NCBI GenBank assembly: GCA_025043315.1 | Contig: GCA_025043315.1_4324.1 | DNA length: 46,202 nucleotides | Direction: 5' to 3' (one strand) | Origin: a phage | Part shown: piece after piece, positions 1-42,846 of the stretch | Numbering within the stretch: the first letter of the stretch is position 1 | Layout: every line of letters starts with the position of its first letter | The notes under the pieces: model-generated | What the model saw: the letters and a program-made list of their open reading frames with translations, nothing else | What the model was told of the DNA's origin: nothing | The model's database searches: none | Translations under genes and position numbers: made by a program

Positions 1-130
1 GACGCACCAGAGCATTATTCGCATAAATCGAAGCAAGAATTGTAGGGTCTTGATTCTGTAAACTCCCGTAAATCTCACTACCATCACTGCCGCCTAGAAA
101 TATATCGGCGTAGCTGTCTGTCTTGACCAT
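1..130 (-). CDS. 5' fragment of the gene following terL (MVKTDSYADIFLGGSDGSEIYGSL...), runs off the left edge; possibly portal N-terminus
   Basis: ATG at 128-130 (minus) with GGAG SD at 136-139; frame open to position 1; sits directly after terL. Confidence 0.4.
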   Translation of the reverse strand, partial: MVKTDSYADIFLGGSDGSEIYGSLQNQDPTILASIYANNALVR

Positions 131-177
131 GTTTTTCTCCAATAAAAAAGCCCCATGTAGAGGCTAGTTTATCACGG
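131..177 (-). terminator. hairpin/T-tract/SD cassette, copy 1
   Basis: minus strand AAACTAG-CCTCTACATGGGGC-TTTTTTATT-GGAGAAAAAC-ATG between terL and the next gene. Confidence 0.5.
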
Positions 178-13017: not shown

Positions 13018-13058
13018 TTTTGTGTTTCCTCGTTTAGTTCATCTCGTTTCGATGTGGT

Positions 13059-18632: not shown

Positions 18633-18662
18633 TAAACAATGGCGCTATGCATTGTGTATAGT
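18620..18662 (+). promoter_or_regulatory. palindromic promoter module (TAGCACGAATTGATA 18620-18634; TATAGT 18657-18662)
   Basis: 22-bp spacer; palindrome overlaps stop of upstream gene. Confidence 0.55.
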
Positions 18663-18682
18663 GCCTTTATTGTTTATGGAGG

Positions 18683-20196: not shown

Positions 20197-20221
20197 AACA
20201 ACAATATAGGAATTGATTATT

Positions 20222-22579
20222 ATGGCAATTTATGACTTAGGAACCGCATCGCTAGCCGCGAATGGCGAAGTGACTGGCGTAGGAACAACATGGAAGGCAC
20301 CACTTACACTGATCAGAGTTGGTGCAACCATCGTATTTAAAACTGAACCAGTACAGATTTACACCATCTCAGAAATCATCAGCGATACGCGGATTAATGT
20401 TTACAACCCTAATTCTGAAACTGTTCCTGCTGGCACTGGTTACGCGATTCTTGCGCACGACGGGATTACCGTCCAGGGTTTAGCTCAGGATGTTGCCGAA
20501 ACTTTGCGCTACTATCAGTCAAAAGAGACCTCAATTGAGTCATTAATTGAAATAATTGAAAACTCAGATATTGATGTTATTGATGGCAAAATTCAGGAAA
20601 TGCAGCAAATTCTAAGTAGCACAATGGCAGCCGAAGGATCAGCAAAATCCAGTAGTGATAGCGCTCTTGAATACAGTAATAAATCAATAAGCAGCGCTAA
20701 TGAGTCAAAGTCTGCAAGGGATGAGGCTGTAGCCGCTAAGAATTCGACAATTGAAGCGATTAATAACGCAGGAGATGCAGGTACACTAGTGACATTATCT
20801 GGTTCTAATGGGGCATCACTTATTGGAACCACTGATGGTTCAACCATTCAGGACGAGATTTCGAGTCTTAAAGCCAATGGGGCTTCAATTATTCGAACCA
20901 CTGATGGTTCAACCATTCAGGACGAGATTTCGAGTCTTAAAGCCAATGGGGCTTCAATTATTCGAACCACTGATGGTTCAACCATTCAGGACGAGATTTC
21001 GAGTCTTAAAGCCAATGCTGGAAATCTTAGGGCAGAACTAGCTTCTGATAATGGATTTAATATCGTCAATTACAAGAGGCCTGGTGTTAATGGTTCTGTA
21101 ATTAATTCGCTATCTACCAGGTACGCTTACACTTTAGACGCCGTGGCTGATTTCGGAGCTGACCCAACAGGTTCAACAGATAGTTACGAAGCATTGCAGG
21201 CGTGGGCGAACGCATGTGTTGCTGGGCCATGGGCTACAGGAACTATTAACGGAATATTCAGGATCAGTAAAACACTTGAGTTCGCCAATATCGCTGGATT
21301 GACCATTATTGCTAACTGTTACATATACCCAACTTTCGAATCTGGCGATGCTGTGATTCGCTATCGCAATGGCCAGGGTCTTCGTGTTTACGGTCGCTTT
21401 GAAGCGTCAGGTCAGAATAAGATAGGTATCCGTGCGGCTCATAAGATTTACACCGATAATGATAATGGTTTTAGCTTTTCCTACCTATATGGTGCTTGCG
21501 CTAGTGATGCTCTTACTGGTTTCGAGTTTGGTGACGCGGCTTATCCTAGCGGTCTAGTTTCCGAAATGTCACTGATTGGTGGTTACTCAGTGGGGTGCCC
21601 ATGCGCGGTTCGAGCTATAGGTTCCCAGTGCTATATTAACTTGGATGGATTCGATGCTGTGTCTGGAGGGGTGGGTGATCTTAGTTCCGTTACACAATAC
21701 ACCATTCATGTAAAGGGGGCTAATGTTAAAGTTCGTGGCGGTGAGATTCAGCACAATAATAATATCTACGGAGCTAGCATTCTCGTAGAGCCTCAAACTG
21801 ATCCTCTTTTCAATAATCAGTTCGGAAGCATTGAGGTTAATGCTTGCCATGTTGAGACAGCAGCGCAGCTGTGTTTTATTGCGAATCTTGATGGTGTGGA
21901 ATCACCTAAGAGTGATTTTACTAATATTTCATTTAAAGGACTGCGTGGTTATCACTCCCAGGATAACGGACCATTTATTAGCACGCACTCAACTGCCATT
22001 GAAAGTAACTATTCTGGAACCATTAGTTGGGCTAATATGTCTGGAATGCACTGCGGAGTCACCAGAACACAGCCTAACATACAGGCTGGGAGTCTATCTA
22101 GAGTGTACTACGACGAGACATATGGTGCTGGGTTCCGTAAAGGATTACAGTCTGTATCTGGCGGTATATTGCACTTTAGTCGTAGGCCTGTATGTATAGC
22201 TCAGAACACAGGTGGACAGACTCTTACTGCAGCCACTGACAAAATAATTTGGGGGGGGCTGGTTTCAACTGACGACTCTTACCGCTGGAACGCACAGTAC
22301 AGCGGGGGTACATTTACAGTGCCAGCGGGTGGTTTAAAGGATGTTCACGTTCATGCTGTAGCAAGGATTGACACAAATGTTCAGCTTAGTATGACTGTTT
22401 TCGTAGACGGCGGCGCACAAAGTTTGGCTATACCCAGCGCGGGAGCGGCTGAGCTTAATGCATTCCTTGGTGATTTAGATGCGGGTAGAGAAATTGAGAT
22501 CAGAGCTAGTGTAAGTCCAGGTTCGGCTATTTTGAATGGAGGTTATTTTGAGAGGATGACTATTACTGCATCAAGGTAG
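20222..22579 (+). CDS. tail fibre / tailspike protein with three tandem 23-aa repeats
   Basis: 785 aa from ATG at 20222 (track 788 aa from TTG 20213); repeats GASxIxTTDGSTIQDEISSLKAN x3; C-terminal Gly/Asn-rich region suggestive of a beta-helix. Confidence 0.7.
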   Translation: MAIYDLGTASLAANGEVTGVGTTWKAPLTLIRVGATIVFKTEPVQIYTISEIISDTRINVYNPNSETVPAGTGYAILAHDGITVQGLAQDVAETLRYYQSKETSIESLIEIIENSDIDVIDGKIQEMQQILSSTMAAEGSAKSSSDSALEYSNKSISSANESKSARDEAVAAKNSTIEAINNAGDAGTLVTLSGSNGASLIGTTDGSTIQDEISSLKANGASIIRTTDGSTIQDEISSLKANGASIIRTTDGSTIQDEISSLKANAGNLRAELASDNGFNIVNYKRPGVNGSVINSLSTRYAYTLDAVADFGADPTGSTDSYEALQAWANACVAGPWATGTINGIFRISKTLEFANIAGLTIIANCYIYPTFESGDAVIRYRNGQGLRVYGRFEASGQNKIGIRAAHKIYTDNDNGFSFSYLYGACASDALTGFEFGDAAYPSGLVSEMSLIGGYSVGCPCAVRAIGSQCYINLDGFDAVSGGVGDLSSVTQYTIHVKGANVKVRGGEIQHNNNIYGASILVEPQTDPLFNNQFGSIEVNACHVETAAQLCFIANLDGVESPKSDFTNISFKGLRGYHSQDNGPFISTHSTAIESNYSGTISWANMSGMHCGVTRTQPNIQAGSLSRVYYDETYGAGFRKGLQSVSGGILHFSRRPVCIAQNTGGQTLTAATDKIIWGGLVSTDDSYRWNAQYSGGTFTVPAGGLKDVHVHAVARIDTNVQLSMTVFVDGGAQSLAIPSAGAAELNAFLGDLDAGREIEIRASVSPGSAILNGGYFERMTITASR
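20811..21017 (+). repeat. 3 x 69-bp in-frame tandem repeat inside tail fibre gene
   Basis: units 2 and 3 identical, unit 1 differs at a few positions. Confidence 0.9.
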
Positions 22580-22603: not shown

Positions 22604-22635
22604 TAAAAAAAGCCCCGAAAGGGGCTTTATCTTTT
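22604..22635. terminator. bidirectional rho-independent terminator (AGCCCC-GAAA-GGGGCT)
   Basis: hairpin 22611-22626 flanked by A-run and T-run; between convergent tail fibre and ssb genes. Confidence 0.7.
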
Positions 22636-23775: not shown

Positions 23776-23818
23776 ATCATACCCCACCTTTTAATTTTGT
23801 ATTTAGCAATTCGTGCTA
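23776..23818 (-). promoter_or_regulatory. palindromic promoter module (TAGCAATTCGTGCTA 23804-23818; TATGAT 23776-23781)
   Basis: 22-bp spacer; leader TACCCCATCAACAACGAACGAGG. Confidence 0.6.
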
Positions 23819-23819
23819 T

Positions 23820-24785
23820 TTAGATTTCTTTGTATTGTTTTAGAGCCCAATCAGGAACTAATAGCTCTTGCTCTGTTATGCCGTTCGAGTACCCAGGCCA
23901 AATATCCAACTCCTTGCACTTCTTGTAGGTCGCCAGCGCCTCTAAATATTGAAGCCTTCCGATTCTGAGTTGCTCATCTGTCAAGGTGTACAGCATTGGT
24001 AGATATGGCTCCACCTTCTCCTGCGCAAGCAATCCTACAACAACCTTTCGCTTCTCGCTGAATGCCTTCACAAACAGATCTCTCTGAAGAGCCATTTTTG
24101 CAAGGTATCCGTGAGAGAATGCTGACTTACCAAATCCTTCCGGGCTTGCGTCAGCTGTTGTTTTATAATCTGTGATCCGAACGACTCCATCAACAACGTC
24201 AACGTGGTCAATTCGAATCTTCACTCCGACACCAAGAATCTCACCGAATATTGATAGCTCTTTTTGTGCTGTCTCACTATTCACGATTGCATTATATGCC
24301 GGTATATTGCAAAGAACCTCACGCATAGCCACAACTTTATCGTAGTCTGCTGCGCTAACTAGCTCCTTGCCCTCTACAAGAGCCTGTGCGCTCTCCTGCT
24401 GCTCAATTAGCCATTTAACATCCCAATCCTCACCGGAGCGATACATCATCTCTACGAGCTCGATATACCCCTTCCCTGACGTGCCAGCTACGCCAACTTT
24501 TTTAAGTGCTGCCGATAATCCGGCCTGGCTTGTAATTAATCCTTCAATCGCGTCAAGGTCTGTAGCTCGAAGGTATTCTTTATCAAACATGTCACCTTCG
24601 AGGATGTACGTGTGTGACAGGGTTCCAAACTTAAGCGCCTTGCTATTATTGTTGCGCTGCTTGAACTTCCACTTAGCTGGTGAACCCTGGATAATCTCGA
24701 CAAGTGAGGAGCCTGAGATGTGGTCAGTTTCAGCGTGGTAAGCCTCGTTGCTTAGCTCCTCTCTCGTAAAAACTTTAAAAGTCAT
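23820..24785 (-). CDS. putative PD-(D/E)XK recombination exonuclease
   Basis: 321 aa; nuclease-like RIDHVDVVDGVVRITDYKTT; upstream partner of Erf. Confidence 0.5.
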   Translation of the reverse strand: MTFKVFTREELSNEAYHAETDHISGSSLVEIIQGSPAKWKFKQRNNNSKALKFGTLSHTYILEGDMFDKEYLRATDLDAIEGLITSQAGLSAALKKVGVAGTSGKGYIELVEMMYRSGEDWDVKWLIEQQESAQALVEGKELVSAADYDKVVAMREVLCNIPAYNAIVNSETAQKELSIFGEILGVGVKIRIDHVDVVDGVVRITDYKTTADASPEGFGKSAFSHGYLAKMALQRDLFVKAFSEKRKVVVGLLAQEKVEPYLPMLYTLTDEQLRIGRLQYLEALATYKKCKELDIWPGYSNGITEQELLVPDWALKQYKEI

Positions 24786-25177: not shown

Positions 25178-25524
25178 TTTTGTAACCCCACGATGATTTC
25201 GATATGCTCTTTAGTTGTCTTTTCTATTCTAATTGATTTATTTTTCCAGTCTTCACCATATGATGACTCGCATAATTTAAGAGCTATTTCGTAAGTTAAC
25301 CCAATAAAAACCGGAGCATAGCTAGGTAGTATTACGGTGTGAGCTGAGTATCTATCTATTTTCTTTCCCATTTTCGTATCTCTTTGGTTGTTTGCTTTCG
25401 ATGAGGTAACTATATATTCGCAAGTGCAGCCAGTCCAATTGGTTTCGCCAATCGTTGATTCAAACTTACGCGTGAATATTTGTAATTCCGTGTAGGCATT
25501 GCCACTTGTTACGTAAAATGGCAT
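25174..25524 (-). CDS. hypothetical protein (start uncertain)
   Basis: 116 aa ORF whose ATG lies inside conserved regulatory region B. Confidence 0.4.
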   Translation of the reverse strand: MPFYVTSGNAYTELQIFTRKFESTIGETNWTGCTCEYIVTSSKANNQRDTKMGKKIDRYSAHTVILPSYAPVFIGLTYEIALKLCESSYGEDWKNKSIRIEKTTKEHIEIIVGLQK

Positions 25525-25850
25525 CTAAGCCCAGCTATAGCTCAATGTAACCGGCGTGTATATCGTGTATATCATTTATTGCTGATGGTGTATTGGTATA
25601 GCTGCCGCACAATACTGTATAAATCCACATGATATTAAAATTATAACCGGAACACTCTATAGAAGTAGTTACATGATATACACAGTAATATATATAATAA
25701 TAATAATAAGAGTAAAATGTTGATATATATAGATATTTTAATGTAACTAATGCGTAAATTGGCGTAACAGGGCGTATATCATTTTCCGCGGATGAGATTG
25801 TATACATCGAGTTACATCGGTTACGTGTAACTGTGATTTGTGGTGAATTT
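25515..25850. promoter_or_regulatory. regulatory region B, diverged homolog of region A, with short (TA)n/(AAT)n tracts
   Basis: shared blocks with 7205-7540; GTTACG boxes; AT-rich simple repeats at 25680-25730. Confidence 0.5.
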
Positions 25851-25859
25851 GGCGATAAA

Positions 25860-25902
25860 TAGCACTAATTGCTAAAGGAATCTGACTGTCTTTAGGTATA
25901 TT
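25860..25902 (+). promoter_or_regulatory. palindromic promoter module (TAGCACTAATTGCTA 25860-25874; TATATT 25897-25902)
   Basis: 22-bp spacer. Confidence 0.55.
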
Positions 25903-26247: not shown

Positions 26248-26673
26248 ATGCTTCTTGTTGGAATGCGTGAGTCAAAGGCAGTTCGCCTAGCGGTTCTTGA
26301 TAAGCTTAAGCAGATGCAGGCCACCATTAAAAAACAAGCAGAAGTAATCAGCCAGATGGTAAGTATTGATGAACTAAAAGAGGCGAGAATGATGCTTGGT
26401 GTAGCTAATGCGCAGAATGCACATCTTAGCCAGCGCATTGTTGCAGAGCAAAGAATAAATGAGATCTTACTCATGGATAAGAATACCGATGAAAAGCTCG
26501 ACATGCTGGCTTGTGAGGCTCGCCAGTGCTGGGTTAGCCGCTCTGATGAGATGGAGGAAAGATTTAAGTATGAAGTGCAATGCTTCGCTCTTAAAGAAAA
26601 GACGGACGCACTGACCGGATTAATTGAGAATGAGCTAGGTATTGATATTAAGCTGTTGCTCGAAAAGAAATAG
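26248..26673 (+). CDS. C-terminal part of the same Rha-like reading frame (141 aa), in frame with 26005..26244 across TAG-CAA
   Basis: same frame as upstream ORF, separated only by TAG at 26242-26244 plus CAA. Confidence 0.45.
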
Positions 26674-26713
26674 CACTAATTGCTAAACACTGGTCGCAAG
26701 GATGCGATACTAT
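26671..26713 (+). promoter_or_regulatory. palindromic promoter module (TAGCACTAATTGCTA 26671-26685; TACTAT 26708-26713)
   Basis: 22-bp spacer; leader TACTCCATCGAAACGAAACGAAC. Confidence 0.6.
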
Positions 26714-26753
26714 TACTCCATCGAAACGAAACGAACTTACTAAGGAACATAAA

Positions 26754-26999
26754 ATGACTAACTTAATCAAATCAGTAATCATCGCCGCAGCAGTAATCAT
26801 GGCAGTTGGTTGTTCTTCCGGTCCTCGCCCGGATGGTTGGTGTGCAACCCAAGCAAACGGCGTATGCGTGGCTAAGTGGGAAGGCGGTGTAGTTGTTCCG
26901 GCTGGTGAGCTTGATGTTCGCTACGCCGGAATTGAAAGCAAGGCCGGAGGCGGTTACGGTGGGTCAGTTGCAGATCATGGTTCTAAGGAGTGGAAATAA
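26754..26999 (+). CDS. small lipoprotein (candidate superinfection-exclusion protein)
   Basis: signal peptide plus lipobox MAVGC; 81 aa. Confidence 0.7.
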
Positions 27000-27961
27000 T
27001 GCCACAGGGTATTTTAATCGACCTTAATGATGGAAGGCCAGCTATGGAGATTACTGCGGGGCTAAGAGCACCCGCCGTGACCGGCTCAATAAACACGAAT
27101 GGACTTTCAACCCCAGCAAGTTCGTGGGATTTTGGATTGACAATGTCTCCTGGCTCTACGGCTTTCTGCCTACCAACGAAAGCAGTCCACGTTGACACTT
27201 ACGATGTTATACCCGAAGTTTATTACATGAACGGGTTTCAAAAGGTAAATGACGGAACTGGCAGGATAACGCTTAGCAACTTCAATGGTGCCAATGGTCG
27301 AATAATTGACTTTGCGGGTAATTGTTTTGAAATTCTACCAGCATCATCTTCATCAAGCCCAGGGATACTCGTTGAGAACTCAACTGATTTCCTTGCTATA
27401 TCAAGCAACTCGAGACTAATGTCAGCAGCATGGGTTGGAGGCATACAGGTTAACGGGGCGGCATCGCTACCAGTTAGCGGCATACCATTCGGCAAGTGGG
27501 ATAATCCAAACGTATCACTTGAATCAGATGGATCAACAATATGGTGTAGGGATATAACCTACGGAGGTACAGATGATGTTGCGGCAAGTACTTATGTTCA
27601 GCTGGTGATATTCAGAAATGAACCCCCACCAGCCGGACCAGGACTAACAATGTCGAATAGTTCTGGTCAGATTGTTTTTTCCAGCGTTAGACGACCATTT
27701 GTTCTTGGTGGATTCATTCAGATCAACAATGGATACCAGTCAATAAATGGTGGATTCTTCCCGCTGCTCAGATGCGGCGCTACGACTAGAGTTACTGGAG
27801 GGTATAACAACTTAAGATACAAGGGGGTTTGCATGTCTGGTGGTAACGTTAGAGCAGTACCAGGTACTGTAATTGGTAACTACTCAACTCAGACTGGCGC
27901 TCAGTTCCCTTTCGACACAAATATATCAATGGCACTTCCATTTATTCCAAACTTCTACTAA
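26998..27961 (+). CDS. hypothetical protein, possibly fibre/receptor-binding-like, translationally coupled to the lipoprotein
   Basis: ATG overlaps lipoprotein stop (TAATG) with AAGGAG SD; Gly/Ser/Asn-rich 320 aa. Confidence 0.45.
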
Positions 27962-27992
27962 AAGAAAAGCCCCAATTAAGGGGCTTTATTTA
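27961..27992. terminator. bidirectional rho-independent terminator (AGCCCC-AATTAA-GGGGCT)
   Basis: hairpin 27968-27985 flanked by A- and T-runs between convergent genes. Confidence 0.7.
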
Positions 27993-31428: not shown

Positions 31429-31452
31429 ATAAAAAACCCGCACTAGGCGGGT
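31429..31452 (-). terminator. terminator-like hairpin between I and J (CCCGC-ACTAG-GCGGG plus T-run)
   Basis: stem 31437-31451 with A-run 31429-31436. Confidence 0.45.
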
Positions 31453-32032: not shown

Positions 32033-32771
32033 AAATTACATCCTCAGGTAAATTCTTATGGCGAACGATCCGCACTGTACGCTCTCGCCAGTAATCGGAA
32101 TAGATATCAATGGAACTCATTTTACCATAAAGATGGTGAATGAATCTGTTGTTGCCAATGTATATTCCAGCGTGGTTTGTTACCTCACTCTGCACCTGCA
32201 TCATAATCATTGAGCCAACCGGGGTGTCTGAAGTTTTTACCAGCTCAAATCCTTCCTTAATCCAGTTGTCGTCATAGATATTTTCATTGTACCGTTTCTC
32301 CCACCACGGGTAATTAACTCGGTAGTCATTCAGTTTGACACCGTATTTCTTGTGGAATTCCATCACAAGCCCCCAGCAATCAAAGCTACCAAGCCCCCAC
32401 GGGCGACCAATCAGTGGCATAGATGATGGCTCAAGGATGCGCATATCTCCCTCCGGAATGCTGACGATAACATAAGGAATCTCGCACTCGTTGCAGCTGC
32501 AAATATCCGCTGGGCTAGGTCTTGTTGTTGCTCCGTCGCCTGTGTGAGAGTGAACTACATAAACAATTGACTCGTTATCAACCAGATTAAATGCAATGTC
32601 GGCATACTCATTCGAATCAAGGATGAACTCATTCTCAGGGTCTTTGCTGGCATTTGTGATTCTGTGATACTTCTGCGCCCGACCCTTTTGGGTGACAACG
32701 CCACAGCATTCGTGCGGGTAAACTTCCTTTGCGTGCTGGAAGATTTCCAGCTTAACTTTTGGTGTTAACAT
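32013..32771 (-). CDS. tail assembly protein, lambda K-like (JAB/MPN plus NlpC/P60-like)
   Basis: HECCGVV and HSH motifs; start moved to ATG 32769-32771 with GGAGGT SD (track TTG start runs through a T-tract). Confidence 0.75.
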   Translation of the reverse strand: MLTPKVKLEIFQHAKEVYPHECCGVVTQKGRAQKYHRITNASKDPENEFILDSNEYADIAFNLVDNESIVYVVHSHTGDGATTRPSPADICSCNECEIPYVIVSIPEGDMRILEPSSMPLIGRPWGLGSFDCWGLVMEFHKKYGVKLNDYRVNYPWWEKRYNENIYDDNWIKEGFELVKTSDTPVGSMIMMQVQSEVTNHAGIYIGNNRFIHHLYGKMSSIDIYSDYWRERTVRIVRHKNLPEDVIYDPETD

Positions 32772-32829
32772 TTTACCTCCAATAAAAAAGGCCAACCTTT
32801 CGATTGACCTAGTTTAACACTAATTTAGT
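32772..32829 (-). terminator. hairpin/T-tract/SD cassette, copy 2
   Basis: minus strand AAACTAG-GGTCAA..TTGGCC-TTTTTTATT-GGAGGTAAA-ATG. Confidence 0.5.
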
Positions 32830-33195
32830 TTATTCAAAATAAACCTCAAAATCTATAAATACTGAAGCACCATTGGATTTAAGCTCCTCAGCCTCAATCA
32901 GCTTTTCATCAAATAATGACTTAGTAACATCAATCCAATTCATTCTATATTTCATCTTTCCATCATGCGTATCACTTAAAAGATTGAATCCCACATCATT
33001 AAGTTCAACTCGTGAAAAGTTGTAATAACTATCATGGAGCATGCTGGTAAATTTTACAGTTTTACCATCATCATCCCTAACCTGATAGTAACGACCTGAG
33101 TCATCAACATCACAGGCGTAAGCTTCACCAACAGAAAATAAACCTTCGCATTCTTCTTTGTCTTTCTTGTATCCGTTAAATTTAATGTAGAACAT
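32830..33195 (-). CDS. hypothetical protein inserted between L and K (moron candidate)
   Basis: own promoter module upstream and hairpin cassette downstream; start at ATG 33193-33195 with GAGGAG SD. Confidence 0.5.
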   Translation of the reverse strand: MFYIKFNGYKKDKEECEGLFSVGEAYACDVDDSGRYYQVRDDDGKTVKFTSMLHDSYYNFSRVELNDVGFNLLSDTHDGKMKYRMNWIDVTKSLFDEKLIEAEELKSNGASVFIDFEVYFE

Positions 33196-33223
33196 TTTTA
33201 ACTCCTCTCGTTTGTGTAAAGTA

Positions 33224-33266
33224 ATCATACTCCATCCGTGGCGACTTCGTTTAGCAATTCGTGCTA
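33224..33266 (-). promoter_or_regulatory. palindromic promoter module (TAGCAATTCGTGCTA 33252-33266; TATGAT 33224-33229)
   Basis: about 55 bp near-identical to the copy at 3762-3804. Confidence 0.6.
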
Positions 33267-33267
33267 T

Positions 33268-34023
33268 TTAGTTCTGATTCGCTTTGGACTGAAGGCTAGC
33301 CGCAGCGCATCCACCAAATGAAAGCTGATTATTCTCTCCAAATCTAAGCTTGCAACTGTTAACAGTTCCTGCGCAGAAGTCTAATGATGGATCGCTTACC
33401 GGTTTATCATCCTTGTCAAAATAACGATTACCAGCATAATCACAGCCATTACCGCTACGATACCAGCCCCTAGAAGCCCAGTAGCAAACAGACTGAACAA
33501 GTCTCGCAGGAATATAGATACCATCCATATCCATAGGGCTACTTAGCTCGAATGACGCCGTCTTGTAATCAACCTGCTTCGGTCGCTCAATGAAGTAAAC
33601 AAATCTGCGATAGTCACCATCAGCAATGCTCCCGTCTTCATTGATGTTATCTCGCGTAGTAATCCAGATGGTAACCTTAGCTTTAACAAGTCCGTTGTAT
33701 GTGCGAATCAATGCGCTGATACGCTGGTCTACGTTTGATACTGTTAGCGTCACTTTGTTGGCTTTGCCGTCAGAGGTCATATTGATACCCGAGATACCGA
33801 AAGGTCTTGGTCCATACTCTTCTCCGCGAAATGTAATCGTCTTCTCTGGTAGTGGCTCGCCATTCATCTGGGCCAGCATAATCTCTTCTGGTGTGTATGA
33901 AATGTTCTCATTGTGGAAGTTGTAAACGAGACTTCCAAAGGAGGTTCCGTCAACCTGGATTAGTGTCACAATCTCGCCAGGGAAAAGGCTTTGCAGCTGA
34001 TTTTCAAACTTTGGACTTAACAT
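33268..34023 (-). CDS. minor tail protein, lambda L-like
   Basis: start moved to ATG 34021-34023 (track TTG 34035); position between M and K. Confidence 0.75.
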   Translation of the reverse strand: MLSPKFENQLQSLFPGEIVTLIQVDGTSFGSLVYNFHNENISYTPEEIMLAQMNGEPLPEKTITFRGEEYGPRPFGISGINMTSDGKANKVTLTVSNVDQRISALIRTYNGLVKAKVTIWITTRDNINEDGSIADGDYRRFVYFIERPKQVDYKTASFELSSPMDMDGIYIPARLVQSVCYWASRGWYRSGNGCDYAGNRYFDKDDKPVSDPSLDFCAGTVNSCKLRFGENNQLSFGGCAAASLQSKANQN

Positions 34024-34061
34024 GATTTTCTCCAATAAAAAAGCCCCTAATGGGGCCTAGT
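34024..34061 (-). terminator. hairpin/T-tract/SD cassette, copy 3
   Basis: minus strand AAACTAG-GCCCC-ATTA-GGGGC-TTTTTTATT-GGAGAAAATC-ATG. Confidence 0.5.
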
Positions 34062-34412
34062 TTAACGCATTGCGCTAAAGACTTCCACGAATTGCATGCT
34101 CACAGTCTGAACATCCTTACTGAGTGGTGTAACGCTAATGCTATCCTGCTGAATAACAAACATTGATGTATCACCCTGCGGAGTGGTCCAGAAGAATGGA
34201 GTGATGATGTGGTTGAAGCAGAAATTCATCACATCGCGCCAATCCTTGTTGGTGTAAGTCATCTGGTAGCTTCTGGTGTTGCTCCTGTATCCACCCGCAC
34301 CCCTTTGGGTGTAACCATTGCCGAAGCTAACAATTCTAGCATTGTTTGTGTTAGAAAATGCAGCCCCTCCGTTTTGGATTTGCGTGCACCAATTAAAAGT
34401 ATCAATAGCCAT
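34062..34412 (-). CDS. minor tail protein, lambda M-like
   Basis: 116 aa ORF immediately downstream of tape measure. Confidence 0.7.
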   Translation of the reverse strand: MAIDTFNWCTQIQNGGAAFSNTNNARIVSFGNGYTQRGAGGYRSNTRSYQMTYTNKDWRDVMNFCFNHIITPFFWTTPQGDTSMFVIQQDSISVTPLSKDVQTVSMQFVEVFSAMR

Positions 34413-34442: not shown

Positions 34443-37418
34443 TTAGTTGAATCCACGAAGGTAAGCATACGCCCTGCCGCCCTGCTGGAAAGACTGAGCA
34501 ATCTCTTCCGCTACGATTGCCTTGACGCCGTTTTGCAATGCTTTAGCTTGCTCTGGGTCGCTACCCACCCCCGAGTTTACGTTAACAGTGATTCCGCTAA
34601 CATTAACATCCGTTCCACCAGAAACCAAACCGCCACTTGCATAACCAGATGGACCACCAACCGCGCCGCCGTTTGCATATCCCTTCATTAGAGCGTAAAG
34701 GTTTTTTACGCCAATTCTGCTAGTCGCTTCTTTTGTGAATACGAACTCACCGCGGTGTACCGTTCCTGCTGGCTGATACTTACCACCATCACCAGTATAG
34801 CCGCCGCCAGCAAAACCTATGGCAGATGCAATTGAACCAATAGCACCACCTGTGCCACCGAAGCTACTTAAGCTAGACTCGATAGCCTTGACAACAAGAA
34901 GCTGAGTTGCAATCTTGGCGATCTGCTTAAGAATGTTAACCGTGAATTCCCTGAAATTAGTCTCGCCAGTTGTTACAAGGTTTGTAATCTGGTCGGTAAT
35001 ACCTTCAAAGACCGTTGTGGTTAAACTTCCAGCAATTGAGAATGCATCCGTCGCGCTCTCAGCCCAATTAGCAAAGGATTGATTCACGCCAGCGAGCCAG
35101 TTTTCACGTAGCGCATCCTCCTGAGCATAAAAGTTACGTCTTGCTTCGAGAAGTTGCGCGAAATCTACGTCATCAAGAGAACCACCAGCATTAACCTGAT
35201 TGGACTGAAGAGCCTGAATCTCTTTGGCTCTCTGCTGCTCCCGAGAAGACAGGCCAGCACCCAAATTAATATTGCTTGCCTCATTGTTAATCTGAAGAAT
35301 CTTCTTGCGGTTATCTTCAGCTAACTTATTGGCACGCTCCTGCAAAACAATCTGATCGCCTAACTCAGCTTTCTGCCTTGCGAGTGCAAGAACTTTATCC
35401 TTCTCAATGAGAAGTCTTGCTTGCTCTTTGGTAATTGAGCCATCAATTTGCCTCTGCTCAAGAATCTGGAATTTAGCCTCTTCCTGAAGGTACTGCTTGC
35501 GCTCATTACTTATTACTGCGCCAATATCCCTGTTTTCCTGAAGTACCTTTAGTTGAGCCTGAAGTGCCAGCACGCCAGATTCGTAACCAATTGTAAGGTC
35601 TCTTTGCTCTTTAGCCCTACCATTTTCTTCTTTCCTGCTCTTCTTGATCGCATCAAGTTCATCCTGAAGCGCCTTCTTCCTTTTTGCAAACTCCTCATCA
35701 GTACCTGACTGCTCATTGGAATTCTGATTTTCCCTGCGTGTAACGTAACCAAGTTCTCCTTCTCTGATTCTGGCATCTCTCTCCCTGATAGACTTCTCTA
35801 GCTCAAGGTTTTGCTTCTTGGCGGCATCGATAATCTTCTGCTGACTCTTGATTACATCATCACCGACACCATCAAGGCCTGGGATATTCTGCAATGCCTG
35901 AGTTGCACTAATTACAAACTCACCAATCAGCGCGTCACCTTGGTTAATGAAGACCTTAATCTGTTCAATTGTCCCGGCTATTACATCAACAAACAGGTTT
36001 AGAGCCCCAACCGTTCTGCGACTAATTGCATCCCATACATCAGATATGTACTTCCTGAAGTCACTCCAGGCCAATTCAAGAGGAGTAAGCTGGGCTGCAA
36101 TATCGTTAAGGTTTGCTTCCTGTGATTTGCTAAATATATCAATGGCAGCAGTTACGGCTTCAACCTCACCCCTAGTCTCTCTCAATCTTTCAATTGTTGT
36201 TAACTGCCCCTGTGTAAGGAAGTTAAACCTCTTGTCTAAATCAGCAAGTCCTTGAATTGGGTCGCTCGCAATCTGGTTATAGTAACCAGTAATCTCCTTC
36301 GCATCCCTACCTGTCAACTGCGCCCATCTGGCGGTTGATTTGGTAATCTTGTCAATCTGAGTCAGCGTAAGGTTCCCTTGCTCAATAAGGCTTGTTGCGA
36401 TGCTAGTCACAAGTCCTCTTGTAGCACCAGTAGCGTCAGAAACAGAGCTAACCAACTCTCTAACCTGCGAGATTGATGCGATTGTAGAGTTGTTGGAGAA
36501 TGCAATCGCAGAATTTAATGCTCTGAATTCACTCTCTGCCTGAGCGGCACCGATACCGAGAGCAACAAGTGCCCCACCCAAAACGCCAACAGCAACATTG
36601 AATGGATTTAAGGCTGCGAGCGCGAATCTAAAGGTGTTACCAATACCTCCAAATGCATCCTTAATTTGTCCGCCTTGCTGAATTGCAATAAGCCAAATCG
36701 GAATGCCGCCAGCAAGTGATGTCCCAATATCTGTAATCTGCGCTGGCAATTGAGAGATTGCAGCCTTGTATTGACCTGCGCTTAATCCTGATTTCTGAAA
36801 AGCCTTACTCTGAGCAATTAACTGGGTGTTTGCCTTCTTTGATGCATCGGCGATTCTGTCAATAATAGGCGCCGCCTGAGAACTTACGCCAAGCTGAGCA
36901 GCTTGTAGCTTAAGATACTCCTCACGCGTCAATGTTGCCGCTTGAGCCTGACGCTCAAGTGATGCAATGAACCTATCCGCTTCAACCTTTGCCTTTGCCT
37001 TATCCTTTGCAGCTTGCGCTGCCGCTCTACCCTCTTCAGTTAGCGCCGCACGTGAACGAGCAAGTTTTGCGTTCTGCGTTTCAAGAGCCTCACCTAAGCG
37101 GAAAAACTCCTCATCAGGAACAACGCCAGCTGCGAATGCCTTATCAAGACCTACTGCCGCCTCCTGAAGTTTACGGAATTTTGCAGCCGTTGGGTCGATA
37201 GCTGTTTGCAACTTAGCCAGAGATGCTTTCTGCTCAGCCAGTGCGCGAGCCGTATCTCTAGCCTGGGTTTTAGCAACCTGCTCGGCATTTACGAACTCAC
37301 TAATCCCAGAGGCAGCCTGTTGGTTGGCCTGTCTGAACTTTTGCAGGGATTGCGTGCCCCTATCGACTTGCGAGACGTCTACGGCTAGTGTGATTCCGGC
37401 TAATTCATTTGTTGCCAT
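34443..37418 (-). CDS. tail tape measure protein
   Basis: 991 aa, long Ala/Gln/Glu-rich coiled-coil region, Gly-rich C-terminus; follows G/GT chaperones. Confidence 0.85.
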
Positions 37419-37453
37419 CTAAGCCTCCATAATAGAAAACCCGCCGAAGCGGG

Positions 37454-37765
37454 TTATTTTTTTCTCAGGTTATCCATCATCTCGAGAGCCTTAGCTTCAA
37501 GGATGCGTAAATCACTGAGCACCAATTCTTCTTCTGAGACATTATACACTCTAAAGAGGAAATTTAGCACGTTGTAATCTAACCCTGTAGCTCCGTTAGC
37601 TCCGACTCTCCACTGTGTCGCCATTGAACAATAAATGTCCCACGCCTTCATCATGTTTTCGTCGAAGTGTAAAACTTCAGGCTCTTCATCTTCGTAATCA
37701 GAGCGGCGCATCCCAATAGCTTCCAGTTCGGCATCAGTTGGCTCTGACTGGTACTGTAGATACAC
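37454..37765 (-). CDS. tail assembly chaperone, T-like frame, expressed as G-T fusion by -1 frameshift
   Basis: in the -1 frame relative to 37774..38088; frame open back to the slippery site. Confidence 0.55.
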   Translation of the reverse strand: MYLQYQSEPTDAELEAIGMRRSDYEDEEPEVLHFDENMMKAWDIYCSMATQWRVGANGATGLDYNVLNFLFRVYNVSEEELVLSDLRILEAKALEMMDNLRKK

Positions 37766-38455: not shown

Positions 38456-38482
38456 AATAAAAAAACCCTCCGAAGAGGGTTT
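38456..38482 (-). terminator. strong rho-independent terminator after major tail gene (AACCCTC-CGAA-GAGGGTT plus T-run)
   Basis: 7-bp stem 38464-38481; A-run 38457-38463. Confidence 0.7.
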
Positions 38483-38487: not shown

Positions 38488-39144
38488 TTAAACTTCAGCT
38501 GCCACAGAGGACAGTCTACCACGAATGGATACAGCGATGGATACCGTTTCGATTTCGTTAACACCAATGGTAGGGGTGTCGTTGAAAGCGATAGTGCCGG
38601 ACTGCAAACGCATTTCCTGAGCGCGAGGTACAAACAGACGAATGGCAACAACCTGGCCTGACTCATCGTAGTTACGCAGAACCGGATAAACCGGGTTAGT
38701 GTACTCATGAGCGAAGGTGAAGGTATTCGTTACCGCAGACTTGTAAGTTGGAATCTGCTGTTCGCGGTCATCAGAAAGGCACTGGAAGCTAACAAACTGC
38801 TGTTCGCCGCCGTCAGTAGATACATCCTGAACGCACGGAACTTCGAACCAGGAAGTAATCTTAACAACTTCACCAGTTAAGCCGGCCGGGAACTTGGTGG
38901 TGTTGGAGGTATCAATACCTTCAACTGTTACCGAAGTGCCAGAAACTTCAGTTACTCGAACCTGCTTGTCACTAAGAAGCGTGGAGCTGGAGGCGGTAAA
39001 CAGAAGGTAGTCACCCTTAGCCAGGCCGGATGCGCTAGCTACGGTTAAAACTGGTTTAGGTGCGTTAGAGATTGCAGTTACATCAATTGTGTTACCGCGA
39101 GAGCCTTCTACGAAGACCTGCGTGCCATTGCTGAGATGAGCCAT
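38488..39144 (-). CDS. putative major tail protein
   Basis: 218 aa ORF immediately upstream of chaperones and followed by a strong terminator. Confidence 0.6.
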   Translation of the reverse strand: MAHLSNGTQVFVEGSRGNTIDVTAISNAPKPVLTVASASGLAKGDYLLFTASSSTLLSDKQVRVTEVSGTSVTVEGIDTSNTTKFPAGLTGEVVKITSWFEVPCVQDVSTDGGEQQFVSFQCLSDDREQQIPTYKSAVTNTFTFAHEYTNPVYPVLRNYDESGQVVAIRLFVPRAQEMRLQSGTIAFNDTPTIGVNEIETVSIAVSIRGRLSSVAAEV

Positions 39145-39561: not shown

Positions 39562-40000
39562 GCTTAGCCTCCTCTACTGCTTCCTGAAAGTATCGACCAA
39601 GCCGCATCTGAACAATCCTAATAATGCCGTTTGGTGCCTGACCCGAGCCGCCATACTCAAGGTGAATTGAGTAATCAAGCCTGTTTGTTATGTAAATAAC
39701 TTTGGTTCCCTTTGCTCTGGCTACCGCCCTTGCCTGTCTTGCTAGTGCTCTTTTGGTCTCTGTTCCAAGTTTATCATAGTCAATTACTGACTGCTGAGCC
39801 GGGGAGTTAGCTGTTATTTGCCAGTTGGCTTTGAACCTGCCAGTGTCAACTGGTGACTGATCTACCAACCCCTTAGCTGTGTTGATAATGGTTCCTGCAA
39901 CAACCTCTTCAACTCCAGACTCAACCTTATCTATCCACTCAGAAATGGAGCGGCTAAATTCAATAACCCCGCCATTATCCTTCGGTATAAAACTAGCCAT
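39551..40000 (-). CDS. putative head-tail joining protein
   Basis: start moved to ATG at 39998-40000 with GGGTGG SD (track 40039). Confidence 0.4.
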   Translation of the reverse strand: MASFIPKDNGGVIEFSRSISEWIDKVESGVEEVVAGTIINTAKGLVDQSPVDTGRFKANWQITANSPAQQSVIDYDKLGTETKRALARQARAVARAKGTKVIYITNRLDYSIHLEYGGSGQAPNGIIRIVQMRLGRYFQEAVEEAKRAL

Positions 40001-40364
40001 AAGTAGCCACCCTACGAAGGATTGGTCTATATCCAACAACTGTGCCGGTTGGTTTTACAGGTCGCGGGTCAACAACAACGAAAGTCTCACCATCAACCTT
40101 AATCTGATAACCCTGATTAATTTCCACCTGTGCCGTGAAGATTCCGCGTTTATCGCCAAACTGGATAAACTCACCATCTATATCGCGCGTCTTGATTTCT
40201 CGCACTAAGCCTTTTAACTGGAATGTTTGCGCTGGCACTTCTACCTCAACGCCGTTAACGATTTCAACATATCCAGCGCCAGTACTCATTTCATAAACGC
40301 CATTTGCATCACTAAAGAAGTTAATGCCAGCTCGAGTAATTGATTCGATTTCGTTGTAGTTCAT
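39993..40364 (-). CDS. putative head-tail joining protein
   Basis: start moved to ATG 40362-40364 (MNYNEIESI...) giving ATGA overlap with upstream gene. Confidence 0.4.
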   Translation of the reverse strand: MNYNEIESITRAGINFFSDANGVYEMSTGAGYVEIVNGVEVEVPAQTFQLKGLVREIKTRDIDGEFIQFGDKRGIFTAQVEINQGYQIKVDGETFVVVDPRPVKPTGTVVGYRPILRRVATYG

Positions 40365-40762
40365 CGGCAACCACACCCACCGCCACCAGCGGAAGTAATC
40401 AATCCAAATCCACCGCCTTTCTTGCGGAGCAGTGCTTTGTACATACGGCCCCATGAGGAAGATGATAAATCACCCTGGATTGCTGATTGGTTATCATATG
40501 TGATAGAGAACTCACCGCTCAGTGCATAACTTGCCATTCTACGACTGTATGTTTCCAGGCCTTCATTCTCGCCCTTAAACGCGCCATCAGCAAGCATTAG
40601 GTGCAGCGCGTAAAGGCCAACAGCCTTATCTTTGTCTGCTCCAAACTTGCTTTCGCATACATATAGACGTGCCAAATCAATCCATACATTAATTGCTTCG
40701 TCATCCACCGCTTTAAGCGCAGGAACAAGAGAGCGCATAAACGCCAAAATTGCATCATTCAT
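40361..40762 (-). CDS. putative head-tail connector / packaging-associated protein
   Basis: start at ATG 40760-40762 with GGAG SD (track TTG 40777); Gly-rich C-terminus. Confidence 0.4.
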   Translation of the reverse strand: MNDAILAFMRSLVPALKAVDDEAINVWIDLARLYVCESKFGADKDKAVGLYALHLMLADGAFKGENEGLETYSRRMASYALSGEFSITYDNQSAIQGDLSSSSWGRMYKALLRKKGGGFGLITSAGGGGCGCR

Positions 40763-40803
40763 ATTAGCTCCATACAATAAAGGACGCCGAAGCGCCCTGT
40801 TTG

Positions 40804-41112: not shown

Positions 41113-41136
41113 TAAAAAAGCCCTCCGAAGAGGGCG
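41113..41136 (-). terminator. rho-independent terminator after major capsid gene (GCCCTC-CGAA-GAGGGC plus T6)
   Basis: stem 41120-41135, A-run 41114-41119. Confidence 0.7.
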
Positions 41137-41141: not shown

Positions 41142-42083
41142 TTACGCGAAGGTGATACCTTTCATTACAGCCATCGTCAGTGGACGATAAACGATCAAAC
41201 CTGTAGCTTTTGATGTTACAGGGTACTTAAAGTGCAAGTCCTTAGGTTGCCCTGGAAGAACGTTGGTAGCTTCCGGAACCTCGATAGACATATTGAGTGG
41301 ACTCTTCTCAAACGCCAGAGCAGCCTTACCACCTGCGCCATCGTAGTTGTCCAGGATCTGCAGATAACGCAGATTGATTCCCGAGTTGTTGGTAGCGAAC
41401 AGCTGCGCGTAACTGATAGAGGTGTTGGGAACCAGCTCTTGCATCAGGCGGCGAGCGGAAGCAGGCAGCAAGATATCAGTTGCGGTGTGAGTGCCATTGG
41501 TCGAAGTCTCGATTGCATCAATAAGTGCGGTGATGTCAGTCATGGCAGCAGCTGCGGAGTTCCACGTACCACCAACAACGTTGTTGATGTTCGGATGGTT
41601 GAATACGCTAGTGATACCGTGCGGAGCAGAGCCAGACCAAACCAGCTTATCAAGCAGATTGTCGTGCGCTTCGAAAGCAAGTTCCTGCTTGCGAGTTGAC
41701 AGAGACTGACCAGTTGCAGCACTAGCTTTAATTTCATCAGTAGAAATCAGGAATGCGTTACCGAAACGGAACACTTTGCCTTGTTTCTCGGTCATAAACG
41801 CATCAACCAGCGGCAGGTCGTCAGAGTAATCTGCGATAATCTGCGCAATACCAACGCCATCAAATTCTGGATATTCGAAATACTTCGCATGGCCGGGGAT
41901 TTCATTGGTTACAGGGAAGATATTAACAACGGAGTTTTCTGCGTATTCTTTTTCGTAAGCGCGATTCAGAGCAGCAGTAAGCTGGCTAACAGTCCAGATA
42001 CCAGCGGCATCTGCTTTATCTACGCCCATCTGCTCGAGGTGGGCGGTGATTTTTGCTTGTTCTGCATCAAATCTAATGGCCAT
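41142..42083 (-). CDS. major capsid protein
   Basis: 313 aa ORF looking like an HK97-type capsid protein by eye; followed by strong terminator. Confidence 0.75.
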   Translation of the reverse strand: MAIRFDAEQAKITAHLEQMGVDKADAAGIWTVSQLTAALNRAYEKEYAENSVVNIFPVTNEIPGHAKYFEYPEFDGVGIAQIIADYSDDLPLVDAFMTEKQGKVFRFGNAFLISTDEIKASAATGQSLSTRKQELAFEAHDNLLDKLVWSGSAPHGITSVFNHPNINNVVGGTWNSAAAAMTDITALIDAIETSTNGTHTATDILLPASARRLMQELVPNTSISYAQLFATNNSGINLRYLQILDNYDGAGGKAALAFEKSPLNMSIEVPEATNVLPGQPKDLHFKYPVTSKATGLIVYRPLTMAVMKGITFA

Positions 42084-42803: not shown

Positions 42804-42827
42804 CAAAAAAAACCTCCCGAGGGAGGC
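42804..42827 (-). terminator. rho-independent terminator (CCTCCC-TCG-GGAGG plus T-run)
   Basis: stem 42813-42826, A-run 42804-42812. Confidence 0.65.
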
Positions 42828-42846
42828 TTTAATTTGGGTTTAAGGT

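Follow-up and report, generated by a model that had tools for sequence, protein, structure and literature searches.

The late-gene region of the T1-like phage (Drexlerviridae, Braunvirinae) considered here carries three intergenic cassettes in which a hairpin passes through a U-tract into the Shine-Dalgarno (SD) sequence of the next gene. These are ordinary predicted Rho-independent terminators that punctuate T1-like late genes, of a type already known from T1 and TLS. They probably act as partial, sense-oriented intrinsic terminators in the gaps between late genes, with one of them (site B) forming the 3' end of a moron-like module. As terminators they are routine, adding detail to how a single T1-like genome is annotated. 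In relatives, however, they form the downstream edge of what appear to be swappable accessory-gene modules.

The window, that is, the whole stretch of 46,202 nucleotides that was analysed, contains the pattern TAAACTAG, hairpin, CTTTTTTATTGGAG, 4-6 nt and ATG exactly three times, always on the minus strand. The 14-mer CTTTTTTATTGGAG is present in exactly three copies at 0 mismatches, with no other copy in the window even when 2 mismatches are allowed, and the composite TAAACTAG-N8-24-CTTTTTTATTGGAG-N4-8-ATG gives 3 matches versus 0.00 in 100 shuffles. The first-pass annotation, which had described a hairpin, T-tract and SD cassette before three gene starts, was therefore right on this point. 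A fourth TAAACTAG (44493-44500) lies within a gene and lacks a hairpin, consistent with a chance occurrence.

Site A (128..171, minus strand; TAAACTAGCCTCTACATGGGGCTTTTTTATTGGAGAAAAACATG when read from 171 to 128) occupies the terL/portal junction, with TAAACTAG at 164-171, the hairpin AGCCTC-TACAT-GGGGCT at 149-165, the U-tract TTTTTTATT at 141-149, the SD GGAG at 137-140 and the portal ATG at 128-130. According to Pfam, it is flanked by the large terminase and by the portal, the rest of which is found at the opposite end of the window. Site B (32769..32816, minus strand; TAAACTAGGTCAATCGAAAGGTTGGCCTTTTTTATTGGAGGTAAAATG from 32816 to 32769) lies between ORF132 and the K-like gene, whose product has the JAB and NlpC/P60 domains. 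Here TAAACTAG spans 32809-32816, the hairpin AGGTCAATC-GAAA-GGTTGGCCT 32789-32810 (9 bp, of which 2 are G.U), the U-tract 32781-32789, the SD GGAGG 32776-32780 and the K-like ATG 32769-32771. Site C (34021..34064, minus strand; TAAACTAGGCCCCATTAGGGGCTTTTTTATTGGAGAAAATCATG from 34064 to 34021) separates M from L, which Pfam identifies as Phage_min_tail and Phage_tail_L; its TAAACTAG (34057-34064) includes the TAA stop of M and is followed by the hairpin AGGCCCC-ATTA-GGGGCTT (34041-34058), CTTTTTTATTGGAG (34030-34043), the SD (34030-34033) and the L-like ATG (34021-34023). The downstream genes are thus the portal (earlier given as the gene after terL) and the K-like and L-like genes of the first-pass annotation. 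The consensus then proposed for the initiation region, GGAG(A/G)(A/T)AAA, misses by one base at site C, where the spacer after GGAG is AAAATC.

The stems are GC-rich and 5-9 bp long (6, 9 and 7 bp at A, B and C); each includes 4-5 G-C pairs and closes a loop of 4-5 nt. At 3/3 sites the U-tract TTTTTTATT directly abuts the stem (the T-run is 5-8 long in relatives), and the gap between the U-tract (UUUUUUAUU) and the GGAG of the next gene is 0 nt, so that the T-tract does run straight into the SD, as had been noted from the letters. A terminator scan called all three sites, on the minus (coding) strand only. In RNAfold predictions, the folds containing the hairpin have energies of -13.9 to -14.8 kcal/mol and leave the SD and AUG unpaired; at site B the stability of the sense RNA (-13.5 kcal/mol) far exceeds that of the antisense (-3.2 kcal/mol). 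A bidirectional terminator was rejected because no T-tract lies on the antisense strand and the scan made no call there. The earlier impression of terminators is supported by an intrinsic-terminator anatomy, and also by position, as the T1 record (NC_005833) annotates a "rho-independent transcriptional termination site" at both the terL/portal (AGGGCTGTCAATTGACGGCCCTTTTTATTggaggaaacATG) and M/L junctions. An Rfam scan of the whole window returned only a tRNA and no family matching the cassettes.

Termination does not account for the conserved upstream TAAACTAG, except that this sequence lengthens the stem by a few A/U pairs. It contains the upstream gene's stop codon only at site C (TAA), the stops at A (TAG) and B (TAA) lying 15 and 23 nt before the hairpin. 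As a three-frame stop block it was rejected, all 3 frames being covered only at B and 2 at A and C. The tetramer CTAG is under-represented (70 observed vs ~180 expected), and a special role for it was likewise rejected, since 3/70 copies at cassettes is unremarkable.

Neither these three sites nor low-copy proteins have the arrangement to themselves. About 10 elements made of a hairpin and a T-tract lie in the late cluster, two of which, besides A-C, abut an SD (37438-37455 and 40781-40798). One belongs to a compact junction of hairpin, T-tract, SD and ATG before the tape-measure gene (37416..37455, minus strand; AACCCGCTTCGGCGGGTT ttctattatGGAGGcttagATG) and the other to a compact junction of the same kind (40760..40798, minus strand; AGGGCGCTTCGGCGTCCT ttattgtatGGAGctaatATG), both without the shared flanks. 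Promoters resembling TGnTATAAT stand behind other terminators of this genome. In T1, 6 terminators abut an SD.

Conservation of the hairpins in relatives, which the first-pass annotation had named as a test, is found, and with covariation. Orthologous site A cassettes are present in JeanPiccard, SU57, Rtp, IME253, CEB_EC3a, DTL and Opt-719, and the site C hairpin is kept in relatives with compensatory changes. Across 16 distinct A/C-type orthologues, 94% of cells are paired and one stem pair occurs as C-G, A-U and G-C. Neither the covariation score nor the paired percentage was reached in any of 500 shuffles, a control that ignores phylogeny, and slid registers score far below the observed one. 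The B-type variants show U.G<->U-A changes only, again with a sense RNA far more stable than the antisense. Together these data suggest that pairing is maintained by selection, an argument that rests on one doubly compensated pair and on sequences that are related and modest in number. The hairpin is weak in two orthologues (site C of ACG-M12, -4.3 kcal/mol; L019, -5.2 kcal/mol). ATTGGAG is invariant in all orthologues and paralogues, and T6ATTGGAG also stands before L-like genes of distant phages. The junctions of relatives were read by eye, and slot A was sampled mainly through a motif scan and GenBank records, a terL-based search contributing 5 loci. The motif scan of IMG/VR gave 81 matches, ~20 of them without any hairpin; as TAAACTA and T5ATTGGAG are built into the search pattern, the scan is unusable as evidence for the spread of one cassette.

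The origin of site B becomes clearer when the gene upstream of it is considered. The accessory ORF132 (32830..33198, minus strand) lies between the L-like and K-like genes; it probably starts at the ATG at 33198, with GAGAGGAG just upstream, although the mechanical ORF reaches 33228. It has no Pfam match, and is assigned to phrog_14592 ("virion structural protein") as a relative of phiEB49 gp37. Its 5' boundary is a promoter-like direct repeat (DR; 33221..33270, minus strand) which overlaps the L stop codon, with AAATAGCACGAATTGCTAAAC at 33249-33269 and a -10-like TATGAT at 33224-33229; this repeat family has been described for TLS/T1 (PMC11447400). By sequence, the module has the DR repeat and TATGAT ahead of ORF132, with the site B hairpin behind it. 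No more than 15 phage records contain ORF132. It is present in the window, BEK6, SU57, ACG-M12, phiEB49 and AugustePiccard, whereas L is directly followed by K in T1 and in the relatives L006, L008, L009, L011-13, L015 and L017. The site B cassette is found only in genomes that carry ORF132. In relatives without it, the L stop leads to GGAG and the K ATG with no hairpin, and these uninserted junctions have the SD and lack the U-tract, which ties the U-tract to the hairpin and not to the ribosome-binding site (RBS). After insertion, the native RBS of K (TAAGGAGAAATAAATG) is replaced by the module's own. The proposal that the hairpin serves to lower K expression is therefore better recast: the hairpin is there, and it is more readily explained as the terminator of an inserted module.

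ORF132 is paralogous to an ORF in the terL/portal slot (33% identity, E = 2e-8, same PHROG), and that slot holds an ORF132 paralogue in SU57, Rtp, IME253, CEB_EC3a, phiEB49 and Opt-719. In other relatives the M/L slot contains unrelated small ORFs, again in the order DR, ORF and cassette, and in JulesPiccard it carries an ORF132 paralogue with a B-type hairpin, where homology to the slot-B modules extends through CTTTTTTATTGGAG and stops at GGAG. Slot-filling ORFs in relatives always end in this cassette. In 3 slots, variable cargo ORFs, paralogous in some cases and different in others, lie between a DR and a cassette, and the cassettes would mark the junctions of an inferred recombination. 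This comparative evidence supports the earlier suggestion of a copied cassette. A solo site A cassette was also considered as the deletion scar of an accessory ORF and rejected, T1 having a terminator there without any ORF; the AAATAG at site A is simply the end of terL and not a sign of such a scar.

In the explanation that we favour, E. coli RNA polymerase on the late cluster would release part of its transcripts at the U-tract, and the upstream mRNAs would thereby gain a protective 3' hairpin. In transcripts that read through, the hairpin would sequester upstream sequence while the U-rich stretch, SD and AUG stay single-stranded, allowing the next cistron to start translation independently. 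Termination would have to be partial, or somehow overcome, because portal, L, K and I are essential genes and the gap from U-tract to start codon is too short to hold a promoter. A strong terminator directly ahead of an essential gene would do harm unless a promoter followed it, so that the efficiency must be limited; such compact terminator-into-RBS junctions would imply either deliberately leaky terminators or a mechanism of re-initiation or antitermination. Phage antitermination would also reconcile terminators with essential downstream genes; we know of no such mechanism for T1-like phages. Sites A (terL/portal) and C (M/L) would be old, family-wide terminator positions, and at site B the module, in the order promoter-like DR repeat, ORF132, terminator and SD, would have been inserted between L and K. 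The near-identical flanks may then reflect partly functional constraint on the T-tract and SD, and partly the use of these junctions as seams for module exchange among the three slots by recombination.

Termination, leakiness and any attenuation of low-copy proteins are what we infer from the make-up of these junctions. In the literature searched, no 3'-end, coverage or in vitro termination data were found for T1-like phages, nor any usable transcriptome or terminator assay for T1-like phages or Drexlerviridae, the RNA-seq in PNAS 2026 being of a T5-like phage. The idea of a regulated attenuator did not hold up: there is one dominant hairpin, with no alternative structure or sensor, and no antiterminator helix competing with the hairpin appears in the MFE or centroid folds. 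The cassettes thus lack the antiterminator or sensor of a leader-type attenuator.

The expression of essential downstream genes would also be accounted for if the cassettes were composite elements, a reading that we consider unlikely. In that case (T/C)G-N-TAAACT in the conserved upstream flank would serve as an extended -10, and transcription would start inside the hairpin, in its 5' arm or its loop; transcripts arriving from upstream would end, and new ones without the complete hairpin would escape, carrying the U-rich leader and SD into portal, L or K. TGn indeed directly precedes TAAACT in every A- or B-type copy examined (TGATAAACT, TGTTAAACT; TGATACACT in Opt-719), the key -10 positions T1, A2 and T6 are kept in TAAACT, and in L012 and L013 the hexamer is swapped for TGTTAATAT, which is likewise extended -10-like. 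Phage T1 has TATAAT 2 nt before its terL/portal hairpin, and T1/TLS-like relatives have a -10-like TATAAT or GATAAT just past the M/L hairpin, which suggests, as do the TGnTATAAT-like promoters behind other terminators of this genome, that the family pairs terminators with re-initiation. However, a promoter scan (>=4/6 per hexamer) was empty at all three sites, with no recognisable -35, and site C in the window and in most relatives has CGT, AGT or AGA in place of TGn. Moreover, TAnnnT hexamers easily arise by chance in the AT-rich stretch that separates a TAA stop from a hairpin, and the copies are paralogous or orthologous and hence not independent.

Two further readings place the function of the hairpin in the RNA itself. 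It could be a 3' exonuclease barrier left after RNase E-type cleavage in the adjacent AU-rich strand, giving segments of the long late transcript different half-lives. The stable hairpin, the AU-rich single strands on both sides (UAAACUA / UUUUUUAUU) and the selection on sense-RNA pairing would fit, and segmental mRNA decay is an established means of setting stoichiometry in polycistronic operons. We nevertheless regard it as improbable, since an unbroken U6 set directly against the stem specifically marks intrinsic termination, whereas a stability hairpin could do without it, and the U-tract comes and goes with the hairpin. Stems of 6-9 bp are also too short for RNase III, the T7-type site of which is an irregular dsRNA stem of ~20 bp. 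As such processing can coexist with termination, it is more a complement than an alternative. Alternatively, the hairpin clamp, a U-rich S1-binding leader and the SD could insulate or enhance translation, uncoupling the next gene from the upstream cistron with any effect on transcription incidental. The SD and AUG are unpaired in every predicted fold, ATTGGAG is as invariant and widespread as described above, and the native RBS of K gives way to that of the inserted module. This is improbable all the same, as genes at uninserted junctions are translated without hairpin or U-tract, and it would leave unexplained the GC-richness of the stem, its strict abutment to the U-tract and the same architecture after major capsid and tail genes that have downstream promoters.

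A wider possibility, less likely than not, is put forward tentatively: T1-like phages (Braunvirinae/Rogunavirinae) may have a plug-in system for accessory genes in the essential late operon, its seams targeting fixed slots, as a siphovirus counterpart of the promoter-early stem-loops (PeSLs) of T4-type phages. The left bound of each plug-in would be the DR promoter element, which begins with TAAATAG and with these bases also provides the stop codon of the upstream gene. The right bound would be TGnTAAACT-hairpin-U6AUUGGAG, which would stop transcription of the cargo, give the displaced downstream gene its RBS and perhaps re-initiate from the overlapping extended -10. Such seams would steer recombination to terL/portal, M/L and L/K. 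The same seams around interchangeable ORFs in 3 slots would explain how virulent siphoviruses gain genes in an essential operon while leaving it intact, and could be natural insulated insertion sites for phage engineering.

The closest known elements are the terminators of T1 and TLS. The re-annotation of TLS lists 21 intergenic predicted terminators and gives the "transcripton" idea for the T1 late region, such terminators delimiting the transcriptons (PMC11447400). They are alike in family, junctions (terL/portal and M/L), intergenic position and sense orientation, and in T1 the T-tract also runs straight into the SD (...GGCCCTTTTTATTggaggaaacATG; ...GTCCCTTTTTTTATTggagaaatcaaaATG); they too are predictions. 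Unlike the present cassettes, the T1/TLS records lack the flank identity of TAAACTAG...CTTTTTTATTGGAG (exact matches in T1 = 0), in T1 a distinct promoter-like -10 and a leader of greater length follow the M/L terminator, and T1 has no L/K insertion and hence no site B. Partial termination has precedents in the leaky intrinsic terminators inside transcription units of phiX174 (bioRxiv 10.1101/2020.03.05.979765) and in the read-through terminators of Pseudomonas phages mapped by ONT-cappable-seq (PMC10914365). These share the hairpin and U-tract within operons and a fraction of transcripts continuing downstream, and rest on transcript mapping, whereas the present cassettes are known from sequence.

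PeSLs are promoter/terminator cassettes that end in the SD and start of the next gene and bring about modular shuffling (PMC2839356, PMC4122927). Like the elements described here, they are short conserved intergenic cassettes around variable ORFs of unknown function, with a stem-loop terminator or attenuator whose end is the downstream SD, and they offer homology for insertion, deletion and replacement without disturbing neighbours. The cargo in 3 slots between DR repeat and hairpin/SD, and the B-type cassette moved to M/L, recall this; mini-circles or crossover products were not observed. PeSLs combine promoter and stem-loop in one ~100-bp element, both activities having been shown by reporters. 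Here, in contrast, the promoter-like repeat and predicted terminator stand at opposite ends of the cargo, the scan found no canonical sigma70 promoter within the three cassettes that would make each a single composite element, and the slots lie inside an essential late operon instead of hyperplastic regions. Some DR copies elsewhere enclose a hairpin (e.g. 5357-5406).

Morons, known from lambdoid/HK97-type phages, are genes that sit between two genes of the late operon and bring along a promoter and a terminator of their own (PMC2629481). ORF132 resembles them in being present or absent between the adjacent conserved late genes L and K, with a promoter-like element before it and a terminator-like hairpin after it. 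It differs in that the phage is virulent, so that there is no prophage-state expression, and in that its product carries the annotation of a virion structural protein. Furthermore, its conserved flanks look like a vehicle for mobility, and classical morons are considered to lack such a vehicle (PMC2839356).

Three copies of a composite element, in which TAAACTAG, a hairpin rich in G and C, CTTTTTTATTGGAG, an A-rich stretch of 4-6 bases and ATG follow one another, are found on the minus strand of the window. Site A (128-171) lies between the large terminase and portal genes, site B (32769-32816) between an unannotated 132-aa ORF and the K-like JAB + NlpC/P60 gene, and site C (34021-34064) between the M-like Phage_min_tail and L-like Phage_tail_L genes (domains from Pfam). 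The 14-mer CTTTTTTATTGGAG has three exact matches in the window and no others even at two mismatches, the composite pattern has three matches against 0.00 in shuffles, and a consensus terminator scan calls all three sites, on the minus strand only. The hairpin, T-tract and Shine-Dalgarno (SD) arrangement described in the first-pass annotation is thus accurate in its overall layout, with corrections on two points: site C has AAAATC as its spacer downstream of GGAG, and it is the one site at which the TAA within TAAACTAG ends the upstream gene. Sites A and C are 84% identical over 44 nt, which exceeds what function alone would require and is consistent with past exchange. The L-like (34006-34023, minus) and K-like (32754-32771, minus) genes have nearly the same first five codons, ATGTTAAGTCCAAAG (MLSPK) and ATGTTAACACCAAAA (MLTPK), while phiEB49-type L genes start with MATPLSTK, unlike MLSPK; from these sequences, the copied segment may at one time have included the opening few codons of the gene after it.

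The window DNA belongs to an E. coli siphovirus of the T1-like group (Drexlerviridae, Braunvirinae), 84-90% identical to BEK6, vB_Ec-G8, ACG-M12, SU57 and the BASEL phages Bas01-03. The genome is permuted and cut inside the portal gene (ends 1 and 46202), and is not a perfectly closed circle, since ~45 nt are unaccounted for at the end join (15 codons, RIIDTIPETALAAGF in JeanPiccard). A tRNA gene (2732-2805, minus; 63 bits in Rfam) is found on the upstream side of the small terminase gene, where SU57 has an annotated tRNA-Arg. Three tandem 69-nt repeats, 96% identical (20807-21017, plus), encode 23-aa protein repeats inside a 788-aa ORF (20213-22579) whose position matches that of the annotated tail-spike gene in SU57. 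Low-complexity (AAT)n / (AT)n tracts occupy two divergent intergenic regions (7385-7453 and 25675-25737), and a 42-nt repeat common to both is found nearby (7212-7253 / 25508-25549).

Conservation of the hairpins in relatives, on which the earlier reading had been made to depend, is observed: the same cassettes recur at the same junctions, and SU57 has exactly the same three. Stems of the A/C type vary as GCCCC/GGGGC, GACCC/GGGTC or GGCCC/GGGCC with pairing kept; in 16 distinct sequences pairing holds in 94% of cells, and one base pair takes the forms C-G, A-U and G-C. The covariation score and the percentage paired were reached by 0 of 500 shuffles, and slid registers are far worse. In stems of the B type, U.G to U-A exchange on the 3' arm is the sole variation, and the sense RNA is far more stable than the antisense (in the window, -13.5 against -3.2 kcal/mol), pointing to the transcript as the target of selection. 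A single hairpin, lengthened by a short UAAA/UUUU helix, dominates the RNAfold prediction, with SD and AUG unpaired. An Rfam search gave no family match for the cassettes. In five distant siphoviruses from IMG/VR (L027, L042, L183, L169 and L171), whose L-like proteins are 27-34% identical, a hairpin-TTTTTTATTGGAG-N5-7-ATG arrangement directly precedes the L-like gene, and L027 and L042 have a second hairpin-TTTTTTATTGGAG copy before another gene. The arrangement may have been conserved over a long evolutionary distance, or these phages may have converged on the same compact terminator/RBS solution.

Judged by sequence, the cassettes have every feature of intrinsic terminators. The GenBank record of T1 (NC_005833), a member of another subfamily, annotates a "rho-independent transcriptional termination site" at terL-portal and M-L, which are orthologous in position to sites A and C, and six of its annotated terminators run directly into the next SD, such as AGGGCTGTCAATTGACGGCCCTTTTTATTggaggaaacATG ahead of portal. 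For TLS, the 2024 re-annotation predicts 21 intergenic terminators and cites a proposal in which the T1 late region consists of successive "transcriptons", each with terminators at its borders (PMC11447400). With ~10 hairpin and T-tract elements in the late cluster of the window, this indicates a family-wide style rather than a peculiarity of three genes; the terminator-into-SD kind is known already, and the present cassettes are further examples. Two more hairpins abut an SD, at 37438-37455 (before the tape-measure gene) and 40781-40798, and promoter-like sequences follow others. Unlike sites A-C, seven hairpins (27966-27987, 37438-37455, 38463-38482, 41120-41135, 31436-31452, 22609-22628 and 11637-11654) are called as terminators on both strands, with an A-tract upstream and a T-tract downstream; one of them separates two convergent genes, the J-like gene and the 26990-27961 ORF.

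That the shared flanks reflect a copied cassette is the part of the first-pass annotation best supported by comparison, through module presence/absence, paralogous cargo and a hairpin that moves with the cargo. Site B is present only together with the 132-aa ORF, itself found in only 15 of ~800 related phage records and preceded by one copy of a promoter-like repeat that abounds in this phage family, AAATAGCACnAATTGCTAAAC, and by a -10-like hexamer. In relatives lacking this ORF, the L stop codon leads into TAAGGAG...ATG of K, with neither hairpin nor T-tract. A paralogue (110-118 aa) occupies the terL-portal junction in SU57, Rtp, IME253, CEB_EC3a, phiEB49 and the rogunavirus Opt-719, with 33% identity (E = 2e-8), the same PHROG (14592) and a shared C-terminal ...FEVxFE before the stop; the repeat forms its left border and TAAACTAG-hairpin-CTTTTTTATTGGAG its right border. 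The M-L slot holds another paralogue in JulesPiccard and unrelated 64-74-aa ORFs in three IMG/VR phages, each as repeat, ORF and cassette. The JulesPiccard M-L hairpin is of the site B type, and homology with L-K modules covers the ORF's final ~100 nt and continues across spacer and hairpin to the end of CTTTTTTATTGGAG, beyond which the sequence is L-specific. The hairpin therefore travels with the cargo, with the right-hand seam in the T-tract/SD; the left seam falls at the stop codon of the upstream gene, which the repeat contains within its first bases. The RBS of K is TAAGGAGAAATAAATG uninserted vs TTATTGGAGGTAAAATG inserted; the module supplies the SD of the displaced downstream gene. Sites A and C in the window are terminators without cargo at old slots, and T1 likewise has cargo-free terminators there. 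HNH homing-endonuclease genes in relatives occupy the L-K, TMP-M and terS-terL junctions (Rtp, L016/L138; L014; L019; L020; JulesPiccard, L185 2872-3354; ACG-M12, L001 1333-1830; JeanPiccard, L002 576-1052), which marks these late-operon junctions as general insertion hot-spots; the L-K copies have a repeat-like ATAGCACTTnTTGnTAA upstream and no hairpin/SD cassette downstream.

The oriented repeat ATAGCACnnnTTGnTAA has ~17 copies in the window, including 3787-3807, 5385-5405, 6107-6127, 13103, 15620-15640, 23801-23821, 33249-33269 and 38453 on the minus strand, and 7726, 9086-9106, 9634, 18617-18637, 25857-25877 and 26668-26688 on the plus strand. About 20 nt on stands TATAGT, TATGAT or TATAAT, followed by a conserved leader, (T)TAC(C/T)CCATCGAAACGAAA, and an SD. 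The repeat was described in TLS/T1 (PMC11447400); since both the -10-like hexamer and the leader are conserved, the copies may form a promoter class particular to the family, with a factor- or UP-like site upstream.

The U-tract co-occurs with the hairpin and not with the RBS. Part of the host RNAP transcripts would terminate at the U-tract, the 3' hairpin would stabilise the upstream mRNA, and portal, L and K/I would be supplied by read-through, because the 16 nt from U-tract to ATG are too short for a promoter; in read-through RNA, hairpin and U-rich leader would favour independent translation initiation. An unlikely alternative places an extended -10 promoter in the conserved upstream flank, overlapping the hairpin, so that upstream transcripts stop while new ones start inside the stem and escape. 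The flanks at site A (TGATAAACT), site B (TGTTAAACT) and in L012/13 (TGTTAATAT) fit it, as does TATAAT at the T1 terL-portal junction, but no -35 element is present, a promoter scan is silent at the cassettes, the TG is mostly absent at site C, and TAnnnT hexamers arise cheaply in AT-rich spacers. Roles in processing or stability, or as a translation insulator, are both plausible and would add to termination, not replace it.

Within the termination reading, the proposal of an attenuator for low-copy proteins appears compatible with the layout: the genes that have a compact promoter-less junction before them are portal, tape measure, L, K and one gene on the downstream side of 40798, whereas promoter-like sequences come after three other terminators, of which 42809-42830 lies upstream of the major capsid gene, 41120-41135 follows the capsid gene and 38463-38482 follows the tail-tube gene. 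Any lowering of K expression by site B is more likely to be a by-product of the inserted module, whose promoter and leaky terminator would roughly cancel out. The original observation is solid and its interpretation partly right.

Among known systems, a leader-type attenuator and an RNase III site were rejected for the cassettes. The site B module shows the presence/absence pattern of a moron. T4-type PeSLs are conserved regulatory cassettes that end in an SD, border variable ORFs and show where exchange takes place (PMC2839356, PMC4122927), and the cassette system in T1-like phages works alike. Membership in the PeSL family was rejected, as the cassettes do not unite promoter and stem-loop in a single composite element. 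Several repeat copies do enclose a stable hairpin before the -10-like hexamer (5357-5406 and 13057-13106, minus; 18617-18665 and 26668-26715, plus), the spacer folding down to -11.7 kcal/mol; in T1 (L187), such hairpins at 38973-39001, 39998-40024 and 41980-42007 are recorded as terminators. These repeat-enclosed hairpins resemble the composite promoter/stem-loop arrangement of PeSLs.
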